Below are positions 3,259 to 27,540 of a stretch of 64,000 nt of DNA, in pieces. Each line of letters opens with the position of its first letter. Positions within the stretch are counted from its first letter, which is position 1. The notes beneath the pieces were generated by a model, which did not search any database, had not been told where the DNA came from, and was given only the letters and a program-made list of their open reading frames with translations. Position numbers and translations under genes: made by a program. This stretch comes from an uncultured bacterium. GTDB taxonomy: Bacteria; Patescibacteriota; Minisyncoccia; UBA6257; 2-01-FULL-56-20. The DNA is taken from the NCBI GenBank assembly GCA_963844965.1, contig CAWJQC010000007.1:160001-224000 (forward strand), given 5' to 3'.

Positions 3259-3510
3259 TTATTTTACAGGCTGATTATCCGCGGAGGAAGATTTCTTGCT
3301 GAAAACGTAGAGATACAAAATCTCCAAAATGCCGACCGTGTTTACTACAAGCAAAACAACAAACCAAATTTTACTGCCCAAGTGTGCTGCTCTCCATAGG
3401 GCAAGGCCCTTCCACGCGAGCGACCAGATGACGAGGATGGCGAGGACGAATCCCGCGCCCGCGCTGAGCGCGCCGAAGCCGAACACGGCGCCCAACGAAT
3501 TACTCCACAT
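3259..3510 (-). CDS. small membrane protein (two predicted TM helices)
   Basis: hydrophobic 83-aa ORF. Confidence 0.4.
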   Translation of the reverse strand: MWSNSLGAVFGFGALSAGAGFVLAILVIWSLAWKGLALWRAAHLGSKIWFVVLLVVNTVGILEILYLYVFSKKSSSADNQPVK

Positions 3511-4423: not shown

Positions 4424-6252
4424 ATGTCACCGAGCAACAAGTACAACGAAAGTTATATTTCGCCTTGGGAGGGTGATAAAGACGCCATGGTGGGCAAGAG
4501 CGGAAGGTCTAAATCGGCGAAGCACCGCAACCGCGGCCCCATATTGATCGCTGTGGCGGCGCTTATCGCGGTAATAGCCGTCTTATTTTATTTCGCGTTT
4601 CTGCGGAAACCGGCGGGGCCGGATGTGGGCATGGAATTTCTGAATCCTGGAGCGATACTGGCCGGCGACGGGTTCACTCTCACAGTTTCGATTTCCAATT
4701 ATTCGGACATTGTTCTCCGGGACGCGAGGGTTTCGCTTGTTCTGCCCGACGGCGTTTCGTTTACGGAATCGCAGGCCGACCAGCGCGTTGATGAGAGAAC
4801 CATAGGCGATTTCGGGCCCGGGAGCGTCAATCAACAGTCCTTTAATTTGATAGTTACGAACGGCAGCAATGTATTGAAACATATCCAGGCTAAATTTGAC
4901 TACGCGACGGGCGGGAGCACAAGCGCCGAATTTGAGAGTGTCGGAGAATATGATCTCTCGGTTGGGCAACCGGCAATCGGTTTGAATCTGAGCGCGCCGC
5001 AGAGCATTTTCAACAGCCAGGATTTCACAGTCAAGGTTTCGTACATAAACAACACCAGCCACGATTTCAAAAATTTGCATTTAAACGTTGATTATCCGCC
5101 GATATTCGGATTCAAATCCAGCACGATGCAGCCCGAGTCCGGGAGCAATAATTCTTGGGATTTAGGGACGCTCGCTTCCGGCTCCAGCGGCGTTATATCC
5201 ATAACCGGCAGCGTTGTTGGGCCGGAAAAGTCGTTTTTCAACTTCGGCGCTTCTTTAACATCCGACCTTATGGGTAATACTTACACGATCAATAGCCAGA
5301 CGGCGTCCGTGGCCATTTCCGCGGCGCCGCTCGCGCTTCAAGTCACGCGCCGGAGCACGGCGGATAATGCACTGCATGCCGGTGACCCCGTTACTTACAA
5401 TCTTAATTACGTGAATAATTCCGATGTTACCATGCAGGACGTTACGATAAGCGCCAAACTTACCGGTGAAATGTTTGATTTCACGACGGTTGACACCAAA
5501 GCCTACTTTAATTCGCTGACCGATACGATTAATTGGTTCGCGGCGAACACTCCGGAGCTCCAGAGCATCGCTCCGGGACAGGGAGGGTCGGTTGCTTTCG
5601 CGATCAAAGTCAAAGATTCTTTTCCGATCCGGCTGATGAGCGACAAAAATTACACCTTGCGGCTGGACGCGCAGATTCATCCCCGACGGTTCCGGCAAAT
5701 ACGGCCGCGAACAAGACGGTTTCCATTGCCAGCATTGAAGACAAAGTCGCGGGAAAAATTGATCTGGCGGCGGAAGCGTATTGGCGCGACGCGCAGAGCG
5801 GGATTTTAAATCAAGGGCCTTACCCGCCGAGAGTGGATCAGCCGACGCAGTACACCATACACTGGCGGCTCACAAATTATTCCACAGACGTGGCAAATAT
5901 CACGGTTTCGGCGTATCTGCAGTCAGGCAGCCGGTTCACTGGAGTTGTGAGTTCCAATATCGCGAGTAGCACGCCGACGTACAATCCGGATTCCGGCCTG
6001 GTTACGTGGCAGGTCGGTTCTTTGCCGGCAACGAAAGGGATCACTGGAGCTCCGGCCGAAGCGGTTTTCCAGATAGAAAACACGCCGTCACTCACGCAGG
6101 TCAACCAAAACGTGTCGCTTCTGGGGGAAACGAAAGTTGAGTGGACGGATTCTTTCGTTGGAGCGGTGTACGACGCTACTGCTCCGCCGCTGGACACCTC
6201 CCTTCCGTATGATAAAACGATAACGGATACAGGCAGGACGGTGGAGAATTAG
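4424..6252 (+). CDS. large secreted or surface protein with DUF11-type conserved repeat domains; frame broken near 5683 (C4 run), joining ORFs 4424-5809 and 5533-6252
   Basis: N-terminal TM/signal anchor, repeated beta-rich modules rich in N/S/T; one extra C would join the two ORFs into a ~609-aa protein. Confidence 0.55.
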
Positions 6253-6310: not shown

Positions 6311-7675
6311 ATGGACAAGATTGTGTCTTTGGCGAAGCGCAGAGGGTTTATTTTCCCCGGCTCGGAAATTTATGGAGGACTTGCCAACTCCTGGGATTAT
6401 GGGCCGCTTGGTGTGGAGCTCAAGAATAATATCAAAAATTTCTGGTGGGACAGATTTGTGCACAGGCGCGACGACATCGTGGGATTGGACGCGGCTTTAA
6501 TAATGAACCCCAAGGTGTGGGAAGCGAGCGGTCATCTCAAAGAATTTATTGACCCGTTGATTGAATGCAAAAAGTGCCACGAACGCTTCCGCGCCGACGA
6601 GCTTTTTAAAAAAGGCAGCTGGAAGAAAGAGCAGGAATTCTTGGGAACGCTTTCGGAAGCCGACAAAGAGAAAAGGGTCCGCGACCTGTTTGACAAATGC
6701 CCGAGTTGCGGTGCGGAAGACCAGTTTACGATACCGCGCAATTTCAACATGATGTTTAAGACGTTCATCGGCCCCGCCTACGGCGAGAAATCCGTCGCTT
6801 ACTTCAGGCCGGAAACGGCGCAGGCGATGTTCGTTGATTTCAAGAGTATTTTGAACACAACGCGCAAGACCGTTCCTTTCGGCATCGCCCAGGTTGGAAG
6901 GGCGTTTAGGAACGAAATAACGCCGGGCAATTTCGTTTTCCGGACAAGAGAATTTGAGCAAATGGAAATAGAATATTTCATCCGCGAGAAGGACTGGGAA
7001 AAATATTTTGACTATTGGCGCAAGGAGATGCTGGATTGGGTCGGGGATCTGGGTATCAAACCGGCGCGCATCCACGAGAGCGAAATCAAAGAGGAAGACC
7101 GCGCGCATTATTCGTCAAAAACCGTGGATTTTGAATACAATTTCCCGTTTGGCAGAAAAGAACTTTACGGCTTGGCGTATAGAACGGATTTTGACCTCAA
7201 GAATCATGAAAAGTTTTCCGGCGCTAACCTGAAGTACCGCGATCCGAAAACCGGAGAGGAGTTCTGGCCGCACGTCATTGAGCCGAGCATGGGTGTTGAG
7301 CGCCTTTTGCTTGCCGTAATGCTTGAAGCGTATGCCGAGGATGGCGACAGAGTTATTTTGAAACTTCCGGCAAAATTGGCGCCGCATAAGGCGGCGGTGT
7401 TTCCGCTCTTGGCCAACAAGCCAGAACTTATAAAGCTCGCAAAGAAAATATATGACGATTTGCGCCAACAGTTCGTGGTCGCTTGGGACGACCGCGGCAA
7501 CATCGGCAAGCGCTACTACGCGCAGGATGAAATCGGCACGCCCTGCTGCATCACCGTTGATTTTGATTCGCTGGAGGAGGACGACGTTACCGTGCGTGAT
7601 AGAGATACGGCGAAACAGGAGAGGATTAAAATAGCCGAACTCGAAGAATATTTGAAAGAGCACATAGGACCATGA
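6311..7675 (+). CDS. glyQS: glycine--tRNA ligase (class II, alpha2 type)
   Basis: strong similarity to GlyRS (FPGSEIYGGLANSWDYGPLGVELK...; class II motifs; anticodon-binding C-terminus). Confidence 0.9.
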   Translation: MDKIVSLAKRRGFIFPGSEIYGGLANSWDYGPLGVELKNNIKNFWWDRFVHRRDDIVGLDAALIMNPKVWEASGHLKEFIDPLIECKKCHERFRADELFKKGSWKKEQEFLGTLSEADKEKRVRDLFDKCPSCGAEDQFTIPRNFNMMFKTFIGPAYGEKSVAYFRPETAQAMFVDFKSILNTTRKTVPFGIAQVGRAFRNEITPGNFVFRTREFEQMEIEYFIREKDWEKYFDYWRKEMLDWVGDLGIKPARIHESEIKEEDRAHYSSKTVDFEYNFPFGRKELYGLAYRTDFDLKNHEKFSGANLKYRDPKTGEEFWPHVIEPSMGVERLLLAVMLEAYAEDGDRVILKLPAKLAPHKAAVFPLLANKPELIKLAKKIYDDLRQQFVVAWDDRGNIGKRYYAQDEIGTPCCITVDFDSLEEDDVTVRDRDTAKQERIKIAELEEYLKEHIGP

Positions 7676-10125: not shown

Positions 10126-10425
10126 GTGACTAACAAGTATAATTCGGTTATTTATACTGGTATCACGAACGACATCGTGCGGCGAATGGGTGAGCATGTT
10201 CGCAAAGCGGTTCCGGGTTTTACATCAAGATATAGTGTATGTAAATTGGTGTGGTTCGAAGAATTCAAGACACCGGAGGAGGCCATCACCGCAGAGAAAC
10301 GAATCAAAGGGTGGGTGCTAAAAAAGAAAGTGGCGTTGATCAAAGAGAAAAATCCTGAATTCATAGATTTATTGCATGGAGATCCTTCGGTTTTGCCTCA
10401 GGATGACAATGGGGAGAGGCGTTGA
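10126..10425 (+). CDS. GIY-YIG nuclease family protein (COG2827/UPF0213-like small protein), GTG start
   Basis: GIY-YIG motif VIYTGITNDIVRRMGEH; ~99 aa, typical size for this family. Confidence 0.7.
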   Translation: MTNKYNSVIYTGITNDIVRRMGEHVRKAVPGFTSRYSVCKLVWFEEFKTPEEAITAEKRIKGWVLKKKVALIKEKNPEFIDLLHGDPSVLPQDDNGERR

Positions 10426-10457
10426 TTTTTATACTCAAAAGATATAGATTTAAGTCA

Positions 10458-11466
10458 ATGTTCACCAAGAAAATCGGTATTGACTTAGGCACGACCAACA
10501 CCGTGGTTTTCGTGCCTGGCAAGGGATTTATCATCAACGAGCCGACTATTGTCGCCTTGATTAAGCCCGACAATACGGTGCTTGCCGTGGGTGTGGAGGC
10601 GAAGGAAATGATCGGGCGGACGCCGGAAGAAATCGTCGCCTACAGGCCGCTTAAGGATGGCGTGATTGCCGACTATTACATCACGAAGGCGATGCTTACG
10701 TATTTCATCTCCAAGGCCTCTGGCTGGTTCAATGTTTTCAAACCGGACGTTGTCATCTCGGTTCCGGCTGGAATTACGCAGACCGAGCGGCGCGCCGTTA
10801 CGAACGCCGCGAAAGAAGCCGGAGCGGGAAACGCTTTTATCGTGCGCGAGCCGGTTCTCGCCGCTTTGGGCGCTGGAATTCCAATTAACGCCCGTTCGGG
10901 GAACATGATCATCAACATCGGCGGCGGCACTTCCGAAGTCGGCGGTCATCGCTTTGGGCAGCATAGTTTCCTGGACGAGCTTGCGCATTGCCGGCAACAG
11001 ATTTGACCAGGCAGTCAGCGATTATGTGAAAAGGAAATACGCCTTGGCCATCGGCGAGCAGACGGCCGAGAACGTGAAAATTGAGATCGGCTCGGCATGG
11101 CGACAAAAGAAAAGATGGAATATGAACTCCGCGGCCGCGATTTGATAACCGGGCTGCCGAAAGATATATGTCATCAATTCCAACGAAATAGCGGACGCAC
11201 TGAATCCGTTCCTCGTGGATATCGCCGGCTCAATTCAAAGCGTTTTTAACGTGACTCCGCCGGAGCTTGTCGCGGACATCATGGAGAAGGGGATTATTCT
11301 TTCCGGCGGCAGCGTCCAGCTTCACAATATGCCGGAATTTTTTGAAAGATTTTTGGGCGTGCAGGCCTATGTCGCCGAGGATCCGTTATTCTGCGTCGCC
11401 AAAGGCACGGGGCTGATTCTGGACCACTTGGATATGTATAAGAGGACGCTTTTGAACAAGAGATAA
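10458..11466 (+). pseudogene. mreB: rod shape-determining protein MreB, interrupted by three frameshifts (~10935 extra G; ~11110 missing A in an A-run; ~11180 extra T in ATATAT)
   Basis: three ORF pieces (10422-11006, 10954-11145, 11215-11466) each align with consecutive MreB segments (GIDLGTTNT..., IGGGTSEV..., EYELRGRDLITGLPK..., C-terminal GGSVQL...); may be an assembly artefact. Confidence 0.6.
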
Positions 11467-18506: not shown

Positions 18507-18586
18507 GGGCCCCGTAGCGCAGATTGGTCAGCGCGCCCGACTGTTCAAGCGGGAGGTCGCTGGTTCGAATCCAGCCGGGCCCACCA
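18507..18586 (+). tRNA. tRNA with an aberrant 8-nt anticodon loop (CUGUUCAA); best guess Asn (GUU); CCA encoded
   Basis: acceptor GGGCCCC/CGGGCCC with a 7-66 mismatch, D-stem GCGC/GCGC, T-arm GCTGG-TTCGAAT-CCAGC; the anticodon stem is only CCCG/CGGG, so identity is uncertain (possible indel). Confidence 0.45.
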
Positions 18587-18614
18587 AATCTTTAGCTCTT
18601 TGGTTTTTGTTTGT

Positions 18615-18703
18615 GGCGGGATGGCGGAGTGCTAATCGCGGCAGGCCGTAACCCTGCTCTCCCATCGCGGAGTTCGAAGGTTGAAATCCCTCTCTCGCCA
18701 CCA
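18615..18703 (+). tRNA. type II (long variable arm) tRNA, Tyr-like (anticodon GUA) with an unusual C33; CCA encoded
   Basis: acceptor GGCGGGA/TCTCGCC, anticodon stem GCAGG/CCTGC with loop CCGUAAC, variable stem-loop CTCC-CATCGC-GGAG, T-arm GAAGG-TTGAAAT-CCCTC. Confidence 0.5.
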
Positions 18704-18717
18704 AATTTTTTGGATTC

Positions 18718-18788
18718 GGCGCGGTCGTCAAGTGGCAAGACTGAGGGCTTGCAAGCCCTTATCGGGGGTTCGATTCCCTCCCGCGCCT
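18718..18788 (+). tRNA. tRNA-Cys (anticodon GCA)
   Basis: acceptor GGCGCGG/CCGCGCC, anticodon stem AGGGC/GCCCT with loop UUGCAAG, T-arm GGGGG-TTCGATT-CCCTC, discriminator U. Confidence 0.75.
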
Positions 18789-19455
18789 ACACCCTACACA
18801 TTTTTTGAAACTAAAATGTGTAGGGCTCTTTCTCTCAGTCTCGGCAACCCCGACGTAAAGTCGGGGTTAAAGTCAGCATTGGGATGGTTGGCATTTCCGC
18901 CGCAAGGCGGAAAATTAAGAGCGAATGGTGGATGCCCTTGACATCAAAAGGCGACGAAGGACGCGGCGTAGCGGCGATACGCCTCGGGGAGGTGCGTAGC
19001 AACCTGTGATCCGGGGATTTCCGAATGGGGAAACCCAATTGAGCAAACCTCAATTTTTTTGCCGCAAGGCAAAAAGCAAACCCGCTGAAGTAAAACATTC
19101 CAGTAAGCGGAGGAATAGAGAACTAATGTTATTCCCTTAGTATCGGCGAGAGAAAAGGGAAGAGCCTAAACCTAAGTTTTCGCAAGAAAAGTTTGGTGTT
19201 ATAAGGTAAAAACACTTTGGATATAACGTTGAGCGTTATCCGCCAACGGCGGAGCGGCGACCAGCGTTATATCTAAAAAGGAGTTACAAATTGATTTGTT
19301 AGCCGAAGCCCACTGGAAAGGGGCGCCAAAGGGGGTGATAGCCCCGTAGGCGAAAACGAATCAACTTCTCGTTTTTATCCTTGAGTACTCTGAGGTAAAT
19401 TAGCTTCGGAGGAATTCGCCTGTACTATCAGGCAAGGCTAAATACTTTTGATGAT

Positions 19456-19492
<37 letters not shown>

Positions 19493-19687
19493 CAGGCCGG
19501 TGAGGCCGTTGAAATAGAACCTGAAACCATTCGTTTACAAGGAATTGAACCACGAACGTTCTGCCGCAAGGCGGGACGAGTGGGACAATGTGCCTATTGA
19601 AGAATGAGCCAACGACTTATTTTGCATTGCTCGTGTAAGCATCTATAAGATGCGTACGCACAGCGAAAGCGAGTCTTAATAGGGCGA

Positions 19688-19972
19688 AAACCATCTCAAA
19701 TTTTTGGACTGAAAAATAAAAACCGGTCAGTTTTTAGCTGCCGGTCTGCGAGATACCAATTCTTGTTCTAATTTTCTGACCTGAGCGTCCAGTTTTTCTT
19801 GAAGGCCACGATGCCTCAAGTATCTCCTGCCGCTTACGTGCGATCGATGTTTTTTCCTGGTCCAGATGGAATGTTGGGCCACGCAAACTCCTTTTGTCGG
19901 GCGACTGTAGATCTGGAAGGATTTTAGGATGAGCCGAATAGAAAGTCAACAGTCCAAAAATTTGAGATGGTT
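19688..19972 (+). other. 23S IVS-a (~285 nt) at the helix-25 position, flanked by a perfect 21-nt inverted repeat CCATCTCAAATTTTTGGACTG / CAGTCCAAAAATTTGAGATGG
   Basis: conserved 23S sequence resumes on both sides; long perfect stem typical of RNase III-processed IVS. Confidence 0.65.
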
Positions 19973-20479
19973 AGGCAGTGCAACATAGACCCGAAGCCAG
20001 ATGAGCTTGCCTTGGCCAGGGTGAAATCCGCCGAAAGGCGGATGGAGGCCCGAACTGGTGGGTTGTTCAAAACCTTCGGATGAGCTGAGGTAAGGAGTGA
20101 AAAGCTAATCGAATCTGGTAATAGCTGGTTCTCTCCGAAATAGTTTTACGACTAGCGGCGCAGAAAATTTCGCGGGGGTAGAGCACTGGATGATTCGTAA
20201 AGGCCGAAAGGCCGACGAATCAATCAAACTCCGAATACCGCGATTGGAACCTGCGCTAGTCAGACTGCGGGGGCTAAGCTCCGTGGTCGCGAGGGAAAAA
20301 GCCCAGATCGTCAGCTAAGGTCCCTAAATCCATGCTAAGTGTTAAAGGTAGTCTTCTGCCATAAACAGATAGGAGGTTGGCTTAGAGGTAGCCATCCTTT
20401 AAAGAGTGTGTAACAACTCACTATTCGACGGCAGGGGGCGCGAAAATGTACCGGGGCTAAGCATGGTACCGAAGCTACG

Positions 20480-20585
20480 AATTACCTTGTGCTCCGCACA
20501 AGAATTTTCAGGTAATAATTTTCAATTTTCAAATGGTTTGGAAATTGTAAATTGCAAAATTGGAAATTCTCGCGCGCAGCGCGAG
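20480..20585 (+). other. 23S IVS-b (~105 nt) at the helix-45 position; interior is related to IVS-d
   Basis: an insertion lies between GTACCGAAGCTACG and GTAGTGGTAGGAGAGCATTC; interior aattttcaaatggtttggaaattg is similar to 21275-21330. Confidence 0.6.
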
Positions 20586-20885
20586 GTAGTGGTAGGAGAG
20601 CATTCGTATTGCACTGAAGCTCGACCCGCGAGGGCGAGTGGAGCGGTACGAAGAGACAATGTTGGTATGAGTAACCACAATCCCAATGAGAAATTGGAAC
20701 CCCGAAAATCCAAGGTTTCCGTGGCACTGGCAATCAACCACGGGTTAGGCGGCCCTAAGCCGATCCCGAAAGGGGCAGGCGATGGACAGACGGTTAATAT
20801 TCCGTCCCTTCCCTATGGTTATCTGCCGCATGACGGAGGAAATAAGCTTGCGTGCCTTATTGGTTTGGCATGGTTTGCCTCAAAG

Positions 20886-21033
20886 CGTGTCTCACTGCGT
20901 TCGACACTATAGTTAAACAATTTTTCAGTTAACGAGTTGCGAGTTAACGAGTTGAAAACAAAAAACCCGTTAACACGTTAACTCTTTAACTCGTTAATAA
21001 TTAATTATTGGGTGGCGAGCGGAGCGAGGCACG
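20886..21033 (+). other. 23S IVS-c (148 nt) with terminal stem CGTGTCTCACTGCGTTCG / CGAGCGGAGCGAGGCACG; interior made of TTAACG-family repeats
   Basis: 18-bp terminal pairing with 2 mismatches; interior matches intergenic repeats at 4330-4420 and 46880-46960. Confidence 0.6.
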
Positions 21034-21238
21034 TTGGAGGCCGACCGAAGGTTCGGTTTTTACCGGGCCGACGCAGGCGAAGAGCCTTCCAAGAAAAGCG
21101 CGGCGGTCACGCCGTAGAGAATCCGTACCGGAAACCGACACAGGTGGATTGGGCGAGAAGCCCTAGGGGAACGAGTGATTTGCCTCTAAGGAACTCGGCA
21201 AACAAGCGGCCGTAAGTTAGCAATATGGCCTGCCCGAC

Positions 21239-21352
21239 CGTGCCTCACTGCGTTCGGCGCGGAATTTAAAATTTTACAATTTTTAATTTTCAAACTGTTT
21301 GCAAAATTGAAAATTATATATTGAAAATTCCGCACGAGCATAGCGAGGTGCG
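21239..21352 (+). other. 23S IVS-d (114 nt) with terminal stem CGTGCCTCACTGCGTTCG / CGAGCATAGCGAGGTGCG
   Basis: left terminus identical to IVS-c and IVS-g at 17/18 positions. Confidence 0.6.
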
Positions 21353-21479
21353 GTTGGGCCGCAGCGAAAGTCCCTTTGGCGACTGTTTACCAAAAACACA
21401 GCTCCCTGCGAACTCGCAAGAGGATGTATAGGGGGTGACGCCTGACCGATGCGAGAAGGTCAAGGCCGACGGTGCACGT

Positions 21480-21565
21480 AGCACATAGCATGTAACACAA
21501 AACAAGAAAAAATAAATAAAACCTGCTCCATGTTACATGTTGCGTGCTGCGTGTGCTGATTGGCT
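21480..21565 (+). other. 23S IVS-e: expanded helix insertion with inverted repeat GCACATAGCATGTAACAC / CATGTTACATGTTGCGTGC
   Basis: extra ~70 nt relative to the conserved flanks AGAAGGTCAAGG ... GGTAACTATAACCG. Confidence 0.45.
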
Positions 21566-21887
21566 CAAGCCCTCGTCAATGTCAGCGGTAACTATAACCG
21601 TTCTAAGGTAGCGCAATTCCTTTTCGGGTAAGTTCCGAAGCGCACGAAAGGCGTAACGATCAAAGGACTGTCTCAGAGGCAAGCTCGGTGAAAATGCGAT
21701 TCCCGTGAAGACGCGGGATACCTGCAGCGGGACGAAAAGACCCCGGAAGCTTTACTGCAGCTTGGTATTGTTTCTAGGGCTTTGATGCGTAGCGTAGTGG
21801 GGAGCCTTTGAAGCTCCGCTCTCGGGCGGGGTGGAGGCGACAATGAAACACCCATCTTCAAAGTTTTAGCGACTAACCAGTTGGGGA

Positions 21888-21932
21888 CCCTACACTCTCT
21901 AGATAAATTTTGGAAATCCAGAGAGTGTAGGG
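21888..21932 (+). other. 23S IVS-f: hairpin insertion CCCTACACTCTCT-AGATAAATTTTGGAAATCC-AGAGAGTGTAGGG
   Basis: perfect 13-bp stem; its CCCTACAC...GTGTAGGG ends are shared with the hairpin at 18792-18825. Confidence 0.5.
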
Positions 21933-22297
21933 AAACCCAACCGGGACAGTGCTTGGTAGGCAGTTTAAATGGGGCGTTTTCCTCCAAAAAAGTAACGGAG
22001 GAGTTTATTAAGGTCGGCTTAGCCCGGATGGAAATCGGGCAGGACGTGCAAACGCAAAAGCCGGCTTAACTGCAAGGCCTACAAGCCGCGCAGATGCGAA
22101 AGCAGAAGTTAGTGACCCGACCACACATTATAGAATGGTGGGAGACACCGGACAAAAGCTACTCCGGGGATAACAGGCTGGTGAAGTCCGAGAGTCCCTA
22201 TCGACGACTTCGCTCGGCACCTCGATGTCGGCTCGGCACAGCGCGGGGGTGAAGAAGCTCCCAAGCGTTTGGCTGTTCGCCAATTAAAGTGCCACGT

Positions 22298-22338
<41 letters not shown>

Positions 22339-22456
22339 TGCTGCAGGCGTTTACACTTGAGGGGAGTTGGCCCTAGTACGAGAGGACTGGGCTGAACTGA
22401 CCTCTGGTCTACCGGCTTTGGTACCAACTGAAGCGCCGGGTAGCTATGTCGGGAAG

Positions 22457-22490
<34 letters not shown>

Positions 22491-22510
22491 ACCCCAAGAT
22501 TAGGTGTAGT

Positions 22511-22648
22511 CGTGCCTCACTATCGTTCGGCACGGTATCGATGCAAATATACTAATCGTACTAATGATGCGAATTTGATTCCATTGGTATCATTAGCATT
22601 CACTTGCATATTGGTATCGATACTCGTGATGAGCGGCAGCGAGGCACG
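22511..22648 (+). other. 23S IVS-g (138 nt) near the 3' end (helix-98 region) with terminal stem CGTGCCTCACTATCGTTCG / GAGCGGCAGCGAGGCACG
   Basis: same terminal stem family as IVS-c and IVS-d; interior is palindromic. Confidence 0.6.
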
Positions 22649-22962
22649 ACAAGGTTTCGTTGAAGACTACAACGCATATAGGCTCTAGGTGTAAGATCCG
22701 TAAGGATTTCAGCCAAGGAGTACTAATAACCTGTTTTGCCAACCATCCCAATGCTGACTTGTGTGCTGTTTTGGAGAACCGCGGTTCGATTCGCTCCAGC
22801 GGCGAATCGCCCGCTGCTTCTCGCTCCGACGGCTCGCTTCAGGCGAGACCAAGCCCGTCGGAGCTCCGAAAGCTTCTCCAAAACAGCACACTGCGTCCGT
22901 TCAGAAAGTTTAGGTGTTTTCGCGAAGCGAAAACAGCAATTTAAAGATTAAAACGACTCTTT

Positions 22963-24354: not shown

Positions 24355-24804
24355 TCAAGAGCCTAATTCGTGCACTTTGCCGCGGCCGGCCTTCTTCTCG
24401 CCGGTTATCTTTTTATTTTTTAGTCGTTCTTCACGGGCCGAGTGGGGCACTTTTGTCGCGATGCGCGGGGCGCACTCGGCGAGCGCTTCGTTCACGAAGC
24501 GGTTGAGTTTTTCCGCTACAATGTCTTTGTTCTGCTTCTGCGTTCTTTGTGATTGTTCATAAAGAACTACCTCACCTACGTCATTCACACGGTTCGCGAG
24601 CGGAGCGTATGCCAATATTTTTTCTTTTTGTTCGTCACTCAGAACTTTTGATCCGCGGACATTCCAGCGCAAAACCGCCTTGGTCTCCACCTTGTTTACG
24701 TTTTGCCCGCCTTTGCCGCCGCTCCGCGCATGGGTGATCACGTATTCCGATTCGGGGATAGTAAGCTTGCTGCTCATTTCGTTGTCATTGGTTTCAAGGC
24801 CCAC
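24355..24804 (-). CDS. arfB: peptidyl-tRNA hydrolase ArfB-like (class I release-factor domain, GGQ motif)
   Basis: SGGKGGQNVNKVETKA GGQ motif; ~149 aa with a basic C-terminal tail. Confidence 0.75.
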   Translation of the reverse strand: MGLETNDNEMSSKLTIPESEYVITHARSGGKGGQNVNKVETKAVLRWNVRGSKVLSDEQKEKILAYAPLANRVNDVGEVVLYEQSQRTQKQNKDIVAEKLNRFVNEALAECAPRIATKVPHSAREERLKNKKITGEKKAGRGKVHELGS

Positions 24805-24860
24805 AATATCAATTATTTTTTATTTCCGCGATATTATCAAGTTGTGAATTATGCGCGTTT

Positions 24861-24889
24861 GACTTGTGGAGCGCGGTCGTCTATAATTT
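24861..24889 (+). promoter_or_regulatory. rpsB promoter TTGACT-17 nt-TATAAT with the ATG 8 nt downstream (leaderless-type)
   Basis: hexamers read directly. Confidence 0.5.
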
Positions 24890-24897
24890 TCTCTTAT

Positions 24898-25714
24898 ATG
24901 GCTGATATGGCTGAAGATAAATTGGCTGCCGCTGGCGGCCAGACAATTGCATATCCGGAAGAAGCTTCCCGCGAAATGATTGACGCGGGTGTTTTCTGCG
25001 GCCGCAAGAAGTCAAAGATCAACCCGAAGATGAAAGACTACGTCATCGCTAACCGCGGCGGCATCGGAATCATCAATTTGGCGAAAACCGTTGAAGCTGT
25101 GGACAAGGCCGCCGGACTTCTAAAAGAAAAAGTCAAAGGCGGCGGTCTCCTGCTTATTGTTGGCACGCAACCTCCTGCCGAGGAAGGTATTTTAAAACTG
25201 GCCAACAAATTTAACCTGCCGAGCGTGACTACGAGGTGGGCCGGGGGAACCATTACGAATTTCAAGATCATTTCCAAGCGGATCGAATATTTTAAAAAAC
25301 TTCGCGGTGACCTTGCATCCGGAGCTTTGACGGATAAATACACCAAGAAAGAACGCCTGATGCTTGAAAAGGAATTGGGCCGCCTTACGGAACTTTTCGG
25401 CGGGCTTGAAAGTTTAACAAGAGAACCGGACGTGCTGATAATTATTGATCCGAATCTTCACGAGCACTGCGGTTCGCGAAGCAAGGCGCATGAAGATCCC
25501 CGTGATTGCCCTGGCAAATGTTGATGCCGACCCGGATATGGTGGAATACCTCGTTCCAGGAAACGATAAATCGCGCAAGAGTATAAATTGGTTTTTGGGA
25601 AGGATTGAGTCGGCAGTGGAAGAAGCCGCGGCTATGCGCGCATCCGCCAAACTTGCCGAGGAAAAAGCGAAGGCAGAAACCCCCCCGGCAGATAAGGCAA
25701 AAAATAGTTTATAA
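24898..25714 (+). CDS. rpsB: 30S ribosomal protein S2; 2-nt frameshift near 25468 (CACAC collapsed?)
   Basis: DAGVFCGRKKSKINPKM...TRWAGGTITNF...IIDPNLHEH then TAVREARRMKIPVIA in the next frame (ORFs 24703-25524 and 25445-25714). Confidence 0.75.
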
Positions 25715-26651: not shown

Positions 26652-26734
26652 GGCGCAGGTGGCAGAGCGGTCAATTGCACCAGACTGTAAATCTGGCGCC
26701 TTCGGGCTACGCAGGTTCGAATCCTGCCCTGCGC
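26652..26734 (+). tRNA. tRNA-Tyr (anticodon GUA), type II
   Basis: acceptor GCGCAGG/CCTGCGC, anticodon arm CCAGA-CUGUAAA-TCTGG (identical loop to E. coli tRNA-Tyr), long variable arm, T-arm GCAGG-TTCGAAT-CCTGC, discriminator A. Confidence 0.8.
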
Positions 26735-26740
26735 ACAAAT

Positions 26741-26767
26741 AAAAAAGCCCAAATGGGCTTTTTTATT
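26741..26767 (+). terminator. rho-independent terminator AAAAAGCCCAAATGGGCTTTTTT
   Basis: hairpin plus T-run immediately after tRNA-Tyr. Confidence 0.6.
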
Positions 26768-26829
26768 TGTGCGCCTTGCGACATTCAGTTCTGTCCCGCG
26801 CGTGAAGTGCGCCGTGCTATAATTAAGCT

Positions 26830-27012: not shown

Positions 27013-27122
27013 GAATTGGAGCACTGTCCGAAAGATTTTTTGTCAAAATTGTTTGAGGGTCGTCTGCTTCGGAACCCTGATATTTGCGCGATTTTGCATT
27101 TGTATGCATAATTTGATGGCGA

Positions 27123-27152
27123 GGGCCAGTAGTTTAGTGGCAGAACACCTCA
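27123..27152 (+). pseudogene. 5' half of a tRNA-Ala-like gene (acceptor GGGCCAG, D-arm, anticodon-stem strand CCTCA)
   Basis: pairs with the 3' half at 27288-27325 (acceptor with G3:U70; anticodon stem CCTCA/TGAGG). Confidence 0.5.
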
Positions 27153-27182
27153 GGCGCGCAACCCCGCACCAAAAAGCAAACC

Positions 27183-27253
27183 GGGCCTGTAGCTCAGTGG
27201 CAGAGCATCCGGTTTGCATCCGGAAGATAGGGGTTCGATTCCCCTCGGGTCCA
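27183..27253 (+). tRNA. tRNA-Ala (anticodon UGC)
   Basis: acceptor GGGCCTG/CGGGTCC with G3:U70, anticodon arm TCCGG-UUUGCAU-CCGGA, T-arm AGGGG-TTCGATT-CCCCT. Confidence 0.85.
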
Positions 27254-27287
27254 CAACAAAAATTTTGCTTTTTTGGTACGGGGCAAG

Positions 27288-27325
27288 TGAGGAGATCGCG
27301 GGTCCGATTCCCGCCTGGTCCACCA
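27288..27325 (+). pseudogene. 3' half of a tRNA-Ala-like gene (TGAGG, T-arm GCGGG-TCCGATT-CCCGC, acceptor CTGGTCC, A, CCA)
   Basis: complements the 5' half at 27123-27152 across a 135-nt interval that contains tRNA-Ala(UGC). Confidence 0.5.
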
Positions 27326-27374
27326 CGTTACGGTCAGAAGGATTCCATTTTTTCCGCCGCTGCGGTAAGATATT

Positions 27375-27463
27375 TCTGAACTATGGTGGGGTGGCCGAGT
27401 GGTTGAAGGCGACGGTCTTGAAAACCGTTATACCCCCAAAAGGGTATCGTGAGTTCGAATCTC
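27375..27463 (+). tRNA. tRNA-Ser (anticodon UGA), type II
   Basis: acceptor GGTGGGG/CCCCACC, anticodon arm ACGGT-CUUGAAA-ACCGT, variable stem TATACCC/GGGTAT, T-arm GTGAG-TTCGAAT-CTCAC, discriminator G. Confidence 0.8.
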
Positions 27464-27540
27464 ACCCCCACCGCAGAGTTGGAAAAGTTCCATCTTTGAC
27501 TCCACCGATTTTGTTGGTGTATAATTTACTTACCATTCAG

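Follow-up and report, generated by a model that had tools for sequence, protein, structure and literature searches.

Is a tRNA gene whose two halves lie on either side of a complete tRNA gene simply a gene broken by insertion, or is it a gene that is kept in this interrupted form? The question is raised by a locus at positions 27123-27325 of a 64,000-nucleotide stretch of DNA from an ultra-small bacterium of the Patescibacteria, or CPR (hereafter the window, i.e. the whole stretch that was analysed), where one complete alanine tRNA gene, borne on a base-paired stalk, lies within the anticodon loop of another. Reading of the sequence gives two halves of a complete tRNA-Ala cloverleaf at 27123-27152 and 27288-27325, with G3:U70, A73 and CCA, these and all other features described here being on the plus strand. 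The outer 5' half (27123-27152, paired with 27288-27321) comprises the acceptor strand GGGCCAG (27123-27129) followed by U8 and A9, the D arm GTTT/AGTGGCA/GAAC (27132-27146) followed by A26, and the anticodon-stem strand CCTCA (27148-27152). The outer 3' half (27288-27322), recognized by its sequence and by pairing and covariation with the 5' half and inside the T arm, comprises the anticodon-stem strand TGAGG (27288-27292) followed by the variable AGATC, the T arm GCGGG/TCCGATT/CCCGC (27298-27314), the acceptor strand CTGGTCC (27315-27321), which makes 7/7 pairs including G3:U70, and the discriminator A (27322); the encoded CCA of the outer tRNA follows at 27323-27325.

The gap separating the outer halves is exactly 135 nt and consists of a 19/20-bp stalk bearing an intact tRNA-Ala(UGC). 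From its 5' side the insert contains the internal-loop strand GGCGCGCAA (27153-27161, delimited by sequence and by alignment with the relative L136 described below), which holds the anticodon-loop remnant N34-G-C-A-A, where N is C27157, and has no U33; the stalk 5' strand CCCCGCACCAAAAAGCAAA (27162-27180, seen as inverted repeats I4 and I7 and in the folds); an unpaired CC directly 5' of the inner tRNA (27181-27182, conserved in L136); the inner tRNA itself, complete except for an encoded CCA (27183-27253); an A-rich unpaired linker, CAACAAAAAT, on its 3' side (27254-27263); the stalk 3' strand TTTGCTTTTTTGGTACGGGG (27264-27283, from folds and inverted repeats); and the internal-loop strand CAAG (27284-27287, identical in L136). 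The cassette of stalk and tRNA-Ala(UGC) is placed between positions 38 and 39 of the outer tRNA-Ala, and the junction is a 9-nt by 4-nt internal loop between anticodon stem and stalk. The stalk carries one C-A mismatch in the window that is a C-G pair in L136. A 4-nt GCAA lies on both sides of the insert, and removal of the insert with one GCAA still does not restore a 7-nt loop. The nested structure is the minimum-free-energy fold of the locus. An earlier sequence-only reading of this DNA had proposed split tRNA-Ala halves around an intact tRNA-Ala(UGC), with a nested or intron-like arrangement among the possible explanations; the halves were placed correctly to the base and the nested, intron-like arrangement is real.

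The inner element scores 71 bits with Rfam RF00005 (threshold 29), is called tRNA-Ala(UGC) by ARAGORN, and has the contiguous cloverleaf and 7-nt anticodon loop of a canonical bacterial tRNA. The acceptor, D, anticodon and T stems of the outer tRNA form 21/21 pairs in both the window and L136, which also share its U8, A14, G18-G19, G53-C61 and C56; no contiguous 7-nt anticodon loop with U33 is obtained, whichever flanking nucleotides are joined. AlaRS recognition requires only the acceptor-stem G3:U70, and this pair together with A73 is found in outer and inner tRNAs of both genomes. The acceptor strands of the outer and inner tRNAs have the same bases at positions 1-5, and their only differences are at 6-7 and 66-67. 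The outer T arm had been termed perfect, which holds for its stem but not for its loop, UCCGAUU (C55), non-canonical yet common among CPR tRNAs. ARAGORN with intron and pseudogene options, the check then suggested, does not call the outer tRNA, a limit of the tool and not evidence of absence; the halves once joined are called tRNA-Ala. An intact tRNA-Ala(CGC) at the same position in relatives, also suggested, was not found among those compared, and a CGC anticodon at 34-36 taken from GGCGCGC is disfavoured since the same register in L136 gives CGU (Thr).

A custom scan for split tRNAs (T arm plus acceptor strand, with the complementary strand plus D arm >100 nt upstream) over both strands of the window and of 127 loci matched, among bacterial sequences, only the window site, L041, and a tRNA-Pro array in L068, and the rarity of such matches excludes chance for the pairing of the outer halves. 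The tRNA set of the window also includes Ala(GGC) and Ala(UGC). Its tRNA-Ala(GGC) was considered as a gene-conversion donor for the outer halves and rejected, the stems being dissimilar. In metagenomes, each of the closest intact homologues found for the outer tRNA is a tRNA-Ala(UGC) with CCTCA-TTTGCAA-TGAGG and the same D arm.

On our own reading of the sequence a possible, weakly inferred sigma-70-like promoter (TTGCGC, 17 nt, CATAAT; 27084-27112) lies upstream of the outer half, its 3' end 10 nt before outer G1. It is the sole candidate, was omitted from a consensus promoter scan because its -35 hexamer matches only 3/6, and cannot be aligned in L136. Downstream is a co-oriented tRNA-Ser(UGA) (27385-27474, by ARAGORN and Rfam), syntenic in L136 with 92% identity; the window scan found no terminator between it and the nested gene, and the two are probably co-transcribed. 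Of the ~40 ORFs of the window (64 kb of genome) none encodes a ligase or splicing endonuclease, and exact-protein look-ups for two small neighbouring ORFs gave no match. The assembly does have errors, with apparent frameshifts in rpsB and a truncated mreB in the window.

The evidence that bears most directly on maintenance comes from an orthologous nested locus in L136, a relative represented by an independent JGI assembly from another sample. Window and L136 share the downstream order tRNA-Ser then ccdA, and the junctions GGCG[C/T]GCAA-CCCCGCACC and CGGGG-CAAG-TGAGG. Their ccdA genes have a dS of 1.16, near saturation, with 57% identity at four-fold sites, and identity upstream of outer G1 is ~45-50%; conservation begins at G1 and stops at A73. 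The encoded outer CCA is not conserved, L136 having CAA followed directly by tRNA-Ser. The outer halves are ~75% identical (5' half 80%) and 0/21 pairs are broken. Five double compensatory changes occur in the outer stems, at 6-67, 7-66, 11-24, 49-65 and 51-63, two of them transversion swaps (G-C to U-A, G-C to C-G), and one further pair is changed from U-G to C-G; every stem change in the outer 5' half is compensated. A control in which the 3' partners were slid by 1-3 columns gave 0-2 double changes, and RNAalifold recovered all four outer stems and the stalk unaided. Co-variation or pairing of the halves in relatives, the point on which the sequence-only reading had staked the idea of a split gene, is thus observed in L136.

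Divergence between the two genomes is uneven: ~25% in the outer halves, 6% in the inner tRNA (94% identity in L136; 96% in L001) and 8% in tRNA-Ser. The stalk and junctions are the most conserved parts, the stalk 5' strand being nearly identical save for one extra A in L136, and the linker at 27254-27263 is the least conserved part of the insert. Across the 13 loop nucleotides the sole difference is C27157 to U (CGC vs UGC, both Ala), so that a loop read as the last 7 nt, CG[C/U]GCAA, holds an Ala anticodon in both. Because pairs are kept with compensatory changes although synonymous sites of ccdA are near saturation, the outer tRNA is probably kept by selection rather than being a pseudogene of recent origin, a comparison that rests on two orthologues, the window and L136; at dS ~1.2 no outer pair is broken, which separates the outer tRNA from tRNA pseudogenes provided that the nested state is orthologous. 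Origin as a pseudogene by tRNA insertion, raised at the outset, is weakened by this covariation, but a mobile cassette that entered two tRNA-Ala genes would look identical, and the pattern of outer versus inner divergence in the sequences also fits a cassette entering two different tRNA-Ala genes.

Among other relatives the outer tRNA can be missing: L001, whose MAG appears to be the closest relative of L136 (91% CcdA identity), has a single inner-type tRNA-Ala, and L144 has a single mosaic tRNA-Ala. The outer tRNA is therefore dispensable. A synteny walk from tsf found L001 closest by Tsf identity, with the inner tRNA only, and the others without tRNA-Ala there; the nested element was not found in L135, L137-L143, L145 and L146. 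A scan with a D-arm 17-mer proved non-specific (generic for CPR tRNA-Gly, Ala and Trp and for DPANN tRNAs) and exposed other nested or remnant loci. Loci with a tRNA inside a tRNA occur elsewhere in CPR, in L082 (Pro), L092, L112, L126 (Gly) and L144 (Ser), always with a same-amino-acid tRNA inside; their outer parts are mostly decayed or missing (decayed in L082, L092, L112 and L126), and L082 and L126 resemble the window in having the insertion at or close to 38/39. L001 and L068 show the classical att-type pattern of partial tRNA sequences beside an intact tRNA gene. Complementarity of the flanks as a general trait of CPR tRNA genes was rejected (149 tRNAs, p = 0.41).

The insert fits none of the known intron types considered. 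Within 27050-27400 Rfam finds no group I core or other intron, either at the gathering threshold or at E <= 10, and no ribozyme; the inner tRNA is its one match above threshold. A group I core (P3-P9) takes roughly 200 nt or more, and of the 135 nt here 71 nt are tRNA, so that the sequence-only judgment of an insert too short for such an intron is borne out. Inspection of the sequence and folds found no register of the BHB 3-4-3 motif (two 3-nt bulges, 4-bp helix) that fits the junction, and readings of the internal loop as a K-turn or GNRA loop were not convincing. ARAGORN detects no tmRNA and the insert is too small for a tag ORF; a permuted-tmRNA match at 28.6 bits (threshold 47) covers the T arm and acceptor end only and is a resemblance. 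The non-overlapping 5' and 3' halves and an insert devoid of ORFs set the locus apart from an att footprint. The cassette encodes neither an endonuclease nor a transposase or integrase. A MITE-like transposable element would be expected to have its terminal inverted repeats in multiple genomic copies and to show a target-site duplication; the 64 kb hold a single copy of the stalk sequence, with up to 3 mismatches allowed, and the insert has a GCAA at either side. Junctions and stalk have no match in viral contigs, and phage records match the inner tRNA only.

The reading that we favour, with a probability of about 40%, is that of a conserved nested tRNA gene whose outer part gives a two-piece RNA that accepts alanine, cannot decode, and comes from a single precursor. 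The whole unit, probably with tRNA-Ser, would be transcribed as one precursor that would fold as two tRNAs joined anticodon arm to acceptor arm. Ordinary end-processing enzymes could then free the essential inner tRNA: RNase P would cut at G27183, after the unpaired CC of 27181-27182 (the expected cleavage site), and RNase Z after A27253, followed by CCA addition to the inner tRNA; RNase III may also cleave the stalk. The outer RNA would be left as two pieces of about 60 and 71 nt, annealed by about 36 base pairs. This L-shaped RNA should be charged by alanyl-tRNA synthetase since it has G3:U70, A73 and a CCA end, but with so open and extended an anticodon loop it is predicted to be incapable of ribosomal decoding; it would consequently serve some anticodon-independent function. 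Against this reading, we know of no role for a two-piece tRNA, the outer CCA differs in L136, the outer tRNA is missing from L001 and L144, and the outer remnants of L082, L092, L112 and L126 are decayed.

Different accounts of the same locus give weight to different parts of this evidence. A selfish or accidental replacement cassette, i.e. a tRNA-Ala(UGC) between inverted repeats that inserted in a resident tRNA-Ala and took over its function, would leave the exons as relics, their intact look being due to recent homing or recombination into different tRNA-Ala alleles and their differences being pre-existing tRNA covariation. This we consider doubtful, though a serious contender: similar nested loci recur in CPR with outer parts mostly decayed or missing, insertion is at or close to 38/39 in L082 and L126 as it is in the window, a GCAA stands at either side of the insert, L001 and L144 have no outer tRNA, and the exons are far more diverged than the cassette, with two transversion-type swaps and a T arm that is essentially different. 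The identical junctions and downstream synteny in window and L136 argue instead for one ancestral insertion, and at dS ~1.2 a neutral relic should be unrecognisable, yet 0/42 outer pairs (21 per genome) are broken. Nor does a homologous-recombination crossover fit, positions 24 and 26 differing beside an identical anticodon stem; there is no 7-nt loop on removal of insert and one GCAA; and against mobility stand the lack of an encoded endonuclease, transposase or integrase and of a second repeat copy in the window, in viral contigs or in phage records. If the halves act only in cis, pairing as leader and trailer of the essential inner tRNA with no role after processing, then a leader that is a near copy of the inner 5' half, and could otherwise mispair with the inner tRNA and upset its processing or stability, would be held in check. 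The positions at which outer and inner acceptors differ, 6-7 and 66-67, are exactly the co-varying acceptor positions, the only promoter candidate is upstream of the outer half, and stalk and junctions are the most conserved parts, all as expected of such a scaffold. But simple decay of the leader would remove the risk of mispairing, a clamp has no need of the D and T hairpins and tertiary nucleotides that are kept (3/5 of the double changes fall there), and complementary flanks are not general in CPR tRNA genes (149 tRNAs, p = 0.41); the chances of a scaffold alone are small.

Removal of stalk and inner tRNA with ligation of the outer halves to a decoding tRNA-Ala (CGC in the window, UGC in L136) would make the insert a true intron, not of group I, released by RNase P/RNase Z or another endonuclease with trimming and joined by a ligase such as RtcB or an Rnl-type enzyme. 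The sole loop substitution is at the would-be wobble position, giving both Ala anticodons followed by AA at 37-38; the entire L-shape and identity set are maintained; a CGC species would complete the usual set alongside the Ala(GGC) and Ala(UGC) of the window; and the 3'-OH and 5'-P ends that RNase P and RNase Z produce are substrates of classical RNA ligases, so that they would be joinable. However, no combination of flanks yields a 7-nt loop with U33, the candidates having G33 or extra nucleotides; there is no BHB motif, ribozyme or group I core, and no ligase or splicing endonuclease among the ~40 window ORFs; the outer tRNA is dispensable in relatives; and no such tRNA splicing pathway is known to us in Bacteria. 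We judge a true intron unlikely, and still more so its specific form in which the embedded tRNA is a tRNA-shaped intron that RNase P and RNase Z, both present in every cell, cut out, after which an RNA ligase would join the outer halves to a functional tRNA-Ala (CGC here). An assembly chimera or sequencing artefact has a negligible probability: the rpsB frameshifts and truncated mreB show imperfect assembly, but the independent JGI assembly L136 has the same nested arrangement with a different outer sequence.

Several known systems share features with the nested gene. Archaeal tRNA introns can house another RNA, e.g. the box C/D guide RNA in the Haloferax tRNA-Trp intron, and BHB introns lie at 37/38. 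As in these, the insert here is 3' of the anticodon in the loop, carries a second functional RNA, and leaves pairing to unite the exon halves; here, in contrast, the host is a bacterium, there is no 3-4-3 BHB, the cargo is a same-amino-acid tRNA, the loop lacks U33, and ligation is a candidate step only. The architecture is identical to that of engineered tRNA scaffolds, with an intact tRNA body and a structured recombinant RNA grafted on its anticodon stem, whereas the present case occurs naturally and has as its graft a second tRNA in need of release. Such release has parallels in tRNA punctuation, in rRNA-operon spacer tRNAs with RNase III stems, and in fragmented rRNAs with excision and no religation: as proposed here, an embedded tRNA is cut out by RNase P/RNase Z and the flanking RNAs are freed, RNase III could plausibly act on a long duplex at the flanks, and unligated pieces may function. 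What differs here is that the RNA on either side is a tRNA too, divided within its anticodon loop. Integrative elements leave duplicated 3' tRNA fragments at att sites, and thus likewise partial tRNA sequences beside an intact tRNA gene; those are direct repeats of the same 3' part, unlike the complementary non-overlapping halves and 135-nt insert without integrase seen here. Split and circularly permuted tRNA genes occur in Nanoarchaeum equitans and Cyanidioschyzon merolae (review PMC3978253). There too a long complementary helix by the anticodon loop unites the halves, and the intervening sequence of the permuted genes is a target of RNase P and RNase Z, as proposed here; those genes are separate or permuted and use BHB cleavage and ligation, whereas the halves here keep their usual order, probably in a single transcript, with a whole tRNA between them. 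Patescibacteria tRNA genes can also have group I introns in their anticodon loops (Nakagawa et al. 2026, PMC13011429), which share with this locus the phylum, the anticodon-loop location, and escape from standard tRNA finders, but are self-splicing, a few hundred nt long and detectable by Rfam, in contrast to a 135-nt stalk plus tRNA with no core.

Literature searches found no published description of a tRNA nested within a tRNA. Interrupted tRNA genes (intron-containing, split, permuted) are known in archaea and eukaryotes, and to our knowledge self-splicing group I introns are the only interruptions known in bacterial tRNA genes. Since the separated halves still co-vary in a relative, the locus probably represents an interrupted tRNA gene of a kind as yet undescribed, which is being maintained and is more than a broken gene; in it a bacterial tRNA is interrupted by a complete tRNA for the same amino acid. 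Should the outer RNA have a function, it would represent either a two-piece alanine-accepting tRNA-like RNA with a non-decoding use in bacteria or an unrecognised bacterial splicing route that combines RNase P and RNase Z with a ligase. Were the tRNA-shaped intron true, it would mean protein-enzyme splicing in Bacteria distinct from the group I and BHB pathways, and the nested Gly and Pro tRNAs in other Patescibacteria would add to its examples. If, instead, the outer RNA has no function, recurrent same-amino-acid insertion of a tRNA in a tRNA in Patescibacteria would point to an undescribed mode of tRNA gene replacement. As the outer gene is missed by standard tRNA finders, the tRNA inventories for these reduced genomes may have gaps.

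A tRNA-Ala gene on the forward strand of the window is split into two halves that flank an intact tRNA-Ala(UGC); this arrangement, first described in a sequence-only reading, is exact to the base. The outer 5' half (27123-27152) starts with GGGCCAG as acceptor strand and continues through U8-A9, the D arm GTTT/AGTGGCA/GAAC and A26 to the anticodon-stem strand CCTCA. The outer 3' half (27288-27325) runs from TGAGG through five variable nucleotides and the T arm GCGGG/TCCGATT/CCCGC to CTGGTCC as acceptor strand, the discriminator A and CCA. All seven outer acceptor pairs form, G3:U70 among them. The outer T loop UCCGAUU is non-canonical, yet it is common among tRNAs of the phylum and is therefore not a sign of decay. 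The halves are separated by 135 nt, within which lies the complete inner tRNA-Ala(UGC) (27183-27253, forward strand; called by ARAGORN and scored at 71 bits by the Rfam tRNA model), whose CCA is not encoded. Missing from the sequence-only reading was the mutual complementarity of the flanks of the inner tRNA: 27162-27180 (CCCCGCACCAAAAAGCAAA) pairs with 27264-27283 (TTTGCTTTTTTGGTACGGGG) as an inverted repeat, a 19/20-bp stalk stacked beyond the outer anticodon stem. The predicted fold is thus of one tRNA borne on the anticodon arm of a second.

Judged from its elongation factor Ts and CcdA homologues, the window organism is a member of the Patescibacteria (CPR; Parcubacteria/Paceibacteria-like). 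The surroundings hold housekeeping genes; at the locus the order is rpsB, tsf, tRNA-Tyr, a 60-aa ORF, the nested tRNA-Ala, tRNA-Ser(UGA), a 136-aa ORF and ccdA. A weak candidate promoter, TTGCGC-17-CATAAT, ends 10 nt upstream of outer G1, and there is no terminator between the nested gene and tRNA-Ser. The tRNA-Tyr 3' end lies within a perfect 21-bp palindrome (26731-26774) resembling a bidirectional terminator, and a 17-nt inverted repeat, 82% complementary, brackets tRNA-Ser, its 3' end included (27350-27486). Farther upstream, the 23S rRNA gene (18905-22743) is 3839 nt long against a 2925-nt model, an insertion of ~900 nt, and holds a 168-aa ORF (20406-20912) without Pfam match. Three tRNA genes directly precede it (18508-18788), all above the Rfam tRNA threshold: one with an apparent 8-nt anticodon loop and the ARAGORN anticodon 'gttc', another tRNA-Tyr(GUA), and a third with a 6- or 8-nt loop and an anticodon given as 'gc'. 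rpsB (24703-25714) is in two reading frames, with a break near 25440-25520, and for the MreB ORF (10422-11006) coverage of the family profile stops after the first half; the cause is either genuine frameshifting or indel errors in the assembly.

Relatives were sought by walking outward from tsf and then from ccdA. The tsf walk yielded relatives in which the nested arrangement is missing; L001, whose Tsf is 88% identical, has an inner-type tRNA-Ala at 96% identity and no outer halves. Downstream of this single tRNA-Ala (5407-5565), at the place taken in the window by the outer 3' half, is scrambled tRNA debris: an inverted T-arm/acceptor-like fragment at 5439-5457 and, at 5547-5565, the final 17 nt of the tRNA-Ala repeated exactly in direct orientation and followed by CC. 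The ccdA walk yielded L136, a JGI contig from a different sample (CcdA 82% identical), in which 1076-1277 aligns with window 27122-27323. Architecture and junction sequences are the same, the stalk is nearly identical, the inner tRNA is 94% identical, and a tRNA-Ser 92% identical lies directly downstream. The matching junctions and synteny argue that the two loci are orthologous.

The outer halves of the two loci are ~75% identical. The sequence-only reading had made its claim depend on the halves pairing or co-varying in a relative, and in L136 they do both: 21 of 21 outer base pairs are kept, with five double compensatory changes (6-67 A-U to G-C, 7-66 G-C to U-A, 11-24 U-A to C-G, 49-65 G-C to A-U, 51-63 G-C to C-G) and one change of U-G to C-G. 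When the 3' partners were slid by 1-3 columns as a control, 0-2 double changes and 33-57% pairing were obtained, against 99% for the real structure. RNAalifold, with no structure supplied, recovered the stalk and all four stems of the outer tRNA. It also picked an alternative pairing of 27174-27184 (GCAAACCGG), where the 5' stalk strand runs into the opening two bases of the inner tRNA, with the complementary inner anticodon arm at 27209-27217 (CCGGTTTGC); in this pairing the UGC anticodon faces an Ala codon (GCA). Adjacent ccdA has dS 1.16 and 57% identity at four-fold sites; upstream of outer G1 the loci are essentially unalignable, and conservation spans G1 to A73. G3:U70, A73 and the positions that make tertiary contacts are kept in both. 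If the two loci are orthologous, the outer fold has apparently been under purifying selection since they separated, and the outer tRNA is unlike a pseudogene in its behaviour.

A metagenome scan with the outer D arm, A26 and CCTCA matched six loci, every one an intact tRNA-Ala(UGC) gene with CCTCA-TTTGCAA-TGAGG; the outer gene thus belongs, in split form, to a normal CPR tRNA-Ala lineage. Insertion at 38/39 follows from the end of the outer 5' part at GCAA, positions 35-38. GGCG stands in place of the two nucleotides at positions 32-33, and the 3' junction reads ...GGGG-CAAG-TGAGG, so that GCAA flanks the insert on both sides. The resulting internal loop, 9 nt (GGCG[C/U]GCAA) facing 4 nt (CAAG), differs between window and L136 only at C27157. 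The register C32-G33-N34-G35-C36-A37-A38 yields an alanine anticodon in each genome, CGC in the window, UGC in L136; the register in which the sequence-only reading had placed CGC fails, giving CGU (Thr) in L136. U33 is absent in every register of the loop, the locus has no 3-4-3 bulge-helix-bulge motif, and Rfam finds no intron or ribozyme there even at E <= 10, so that no known bacterial route could lead to a normal decoding tRNA.

Nested and remnant tRNAs are found in other CPR loci. A custom scan of the window and 127 other loci, for a T arm and acceptor strand with the complement and a D arm >100 nt upstream, gave as bacterial matches the nested site, L041 and, in L068, an array of tRNA-Pro sequence. 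L041 (3302-3497, unclassified MAG) is a second fully preserved nested pair, a tRNA-Gly within a tRNA-Gly: both outer halves are intact (GCGGAAT...GAAC and GGGAG-TTCGATT-CTCCC-ATTCCGC-A), the outer anticodon arm is scrambled, and the intact inner tRNA-Gly(CCC) (3377-3448) has its acceptor stem lengthened by U plus AACAAAG/CTTTGTT (fold z-score -7.6). In L068 (4489-4734, minus strand) tRNA-Pro(CGG) is followed by tandem ~88-nt units, each made of a pair of hairpins, a T arm and the 3' strand of an acceptor stem (CNCCCCGA); serial integration footprints are one possible origin, a family of tRNA-derived repeats another. L082 (6737-6900, Paceibacterota MAG) has a tRNA-Pro(GGG) 5' part through the anticodon loop, GGTTGAATATAAAGT, an intact tRNA-Pro(UGG) within a 15-bp inverted repeat, ACTTTATATTCAACC, then a hairpin, and last a degenerate 3' part; a short distance upstream, at 6649-6720, is an intact tRNA-Pro(GGG). 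L126 (4861-5060), L092 (1065-1215) and L112 (2993-3140), from Parcubacteria and Saccharibacteria MAGs, carry tRNA-Gly 5' remnants, cut at 38/39, at 31/32 and in the D loop, with a complete tRNA-Gly(CCC) 20-60 nt farther on in each case; L126 and L092 yielded no 3' half to match. In L144 (352-640) a single tRNA-Ala(UGC) shares its acceptor stem with the L136 outer tRNA and its anticodon arm with the inner one. After 3 nt comes a tRNA-Ser 5' remnant that has an interruption in its D loop and ends in a cut at the anticodon loop, and after that a different complete tRNA-Ser(UGA).

The recurrence of such arrangements, always with an enclosed tRNA for the same amino acid and in most other nested loci with decayed outer parts, favors a replacement cassette flanked by relic outer exons, as do the absence of the outer tRNA from L001 and L144, the apparent position of the L001 MAG as nearest relative of L136 (CcdA 91% identity), and the two transversion-type pair swaps and essentially different T arm that separate the window and L136 exons. 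This explanation is only somewhat less likely than the preferred one given below; against it stand identical junctions and synteny in the two loci, zero broken outer pairs at near-saturated neutral divergence, no mobility gene, and no other copy found in the window, viral contigs or phage records. True splicing of the outer halves to a tRNA-Ala(CGC/UGC) would accord with the substitution at the wobble position, but lacks U33 and any known machinery and is improbable. A purely cis-acting leader-trailer clamp leaves the upkeep of the D and T hairpins unexplained and is about as improbable, and an artefact, refuted by L136, can be practically dismissed.

The tentatively preferred reading, at a probability of about 0.4, is that a single precursor yields a two-piece outer RNA that accepts alanine and does not decode. 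Anatomy, orthology and covariation come from the analysis itself, and the processing steps are drawn from established enzymology. The promoter-like sequence and the lack of a terminator before tRNA-Ser suggest that the whole unit would be transcribed together; RNase P and RNase Z would free the inner tRNA, and RNase III perhaps also cuts the stalk. The outer RNA would be left as two pieces annealed over ~36 bp, L-shaped and with an alanine-accepting end. Because G3:U70 of the acceptor helix is all that AlaRS requires, the two-piece RNA should be charged, and since it cannot decode, any role would be anticodon-independent; that it donates alanine outside normal decoding is a speculative idea.

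Among known systems, the nearest in kind are archaeal anticodon-loop introns carrying another RNA, split and permuted tRNA genes with halves aligned by a helix, the tRNA punctuation and RNase III stems of rRNA operons, engineered tRNA scaffolds, and the group I introns that occur in Patescibacteria tRNAs (PMC13011429). The locus fails defining features of a group I intron, a BHB intron, a tmRNA and an att-site footprint. Full-text literature searches returned no account of one tRNA nested within another, and the feature, which is real and conserved in two orthologues, appears to be undescribed so far; the nested locus takes its place in the known class of interrupted tRNA genes.
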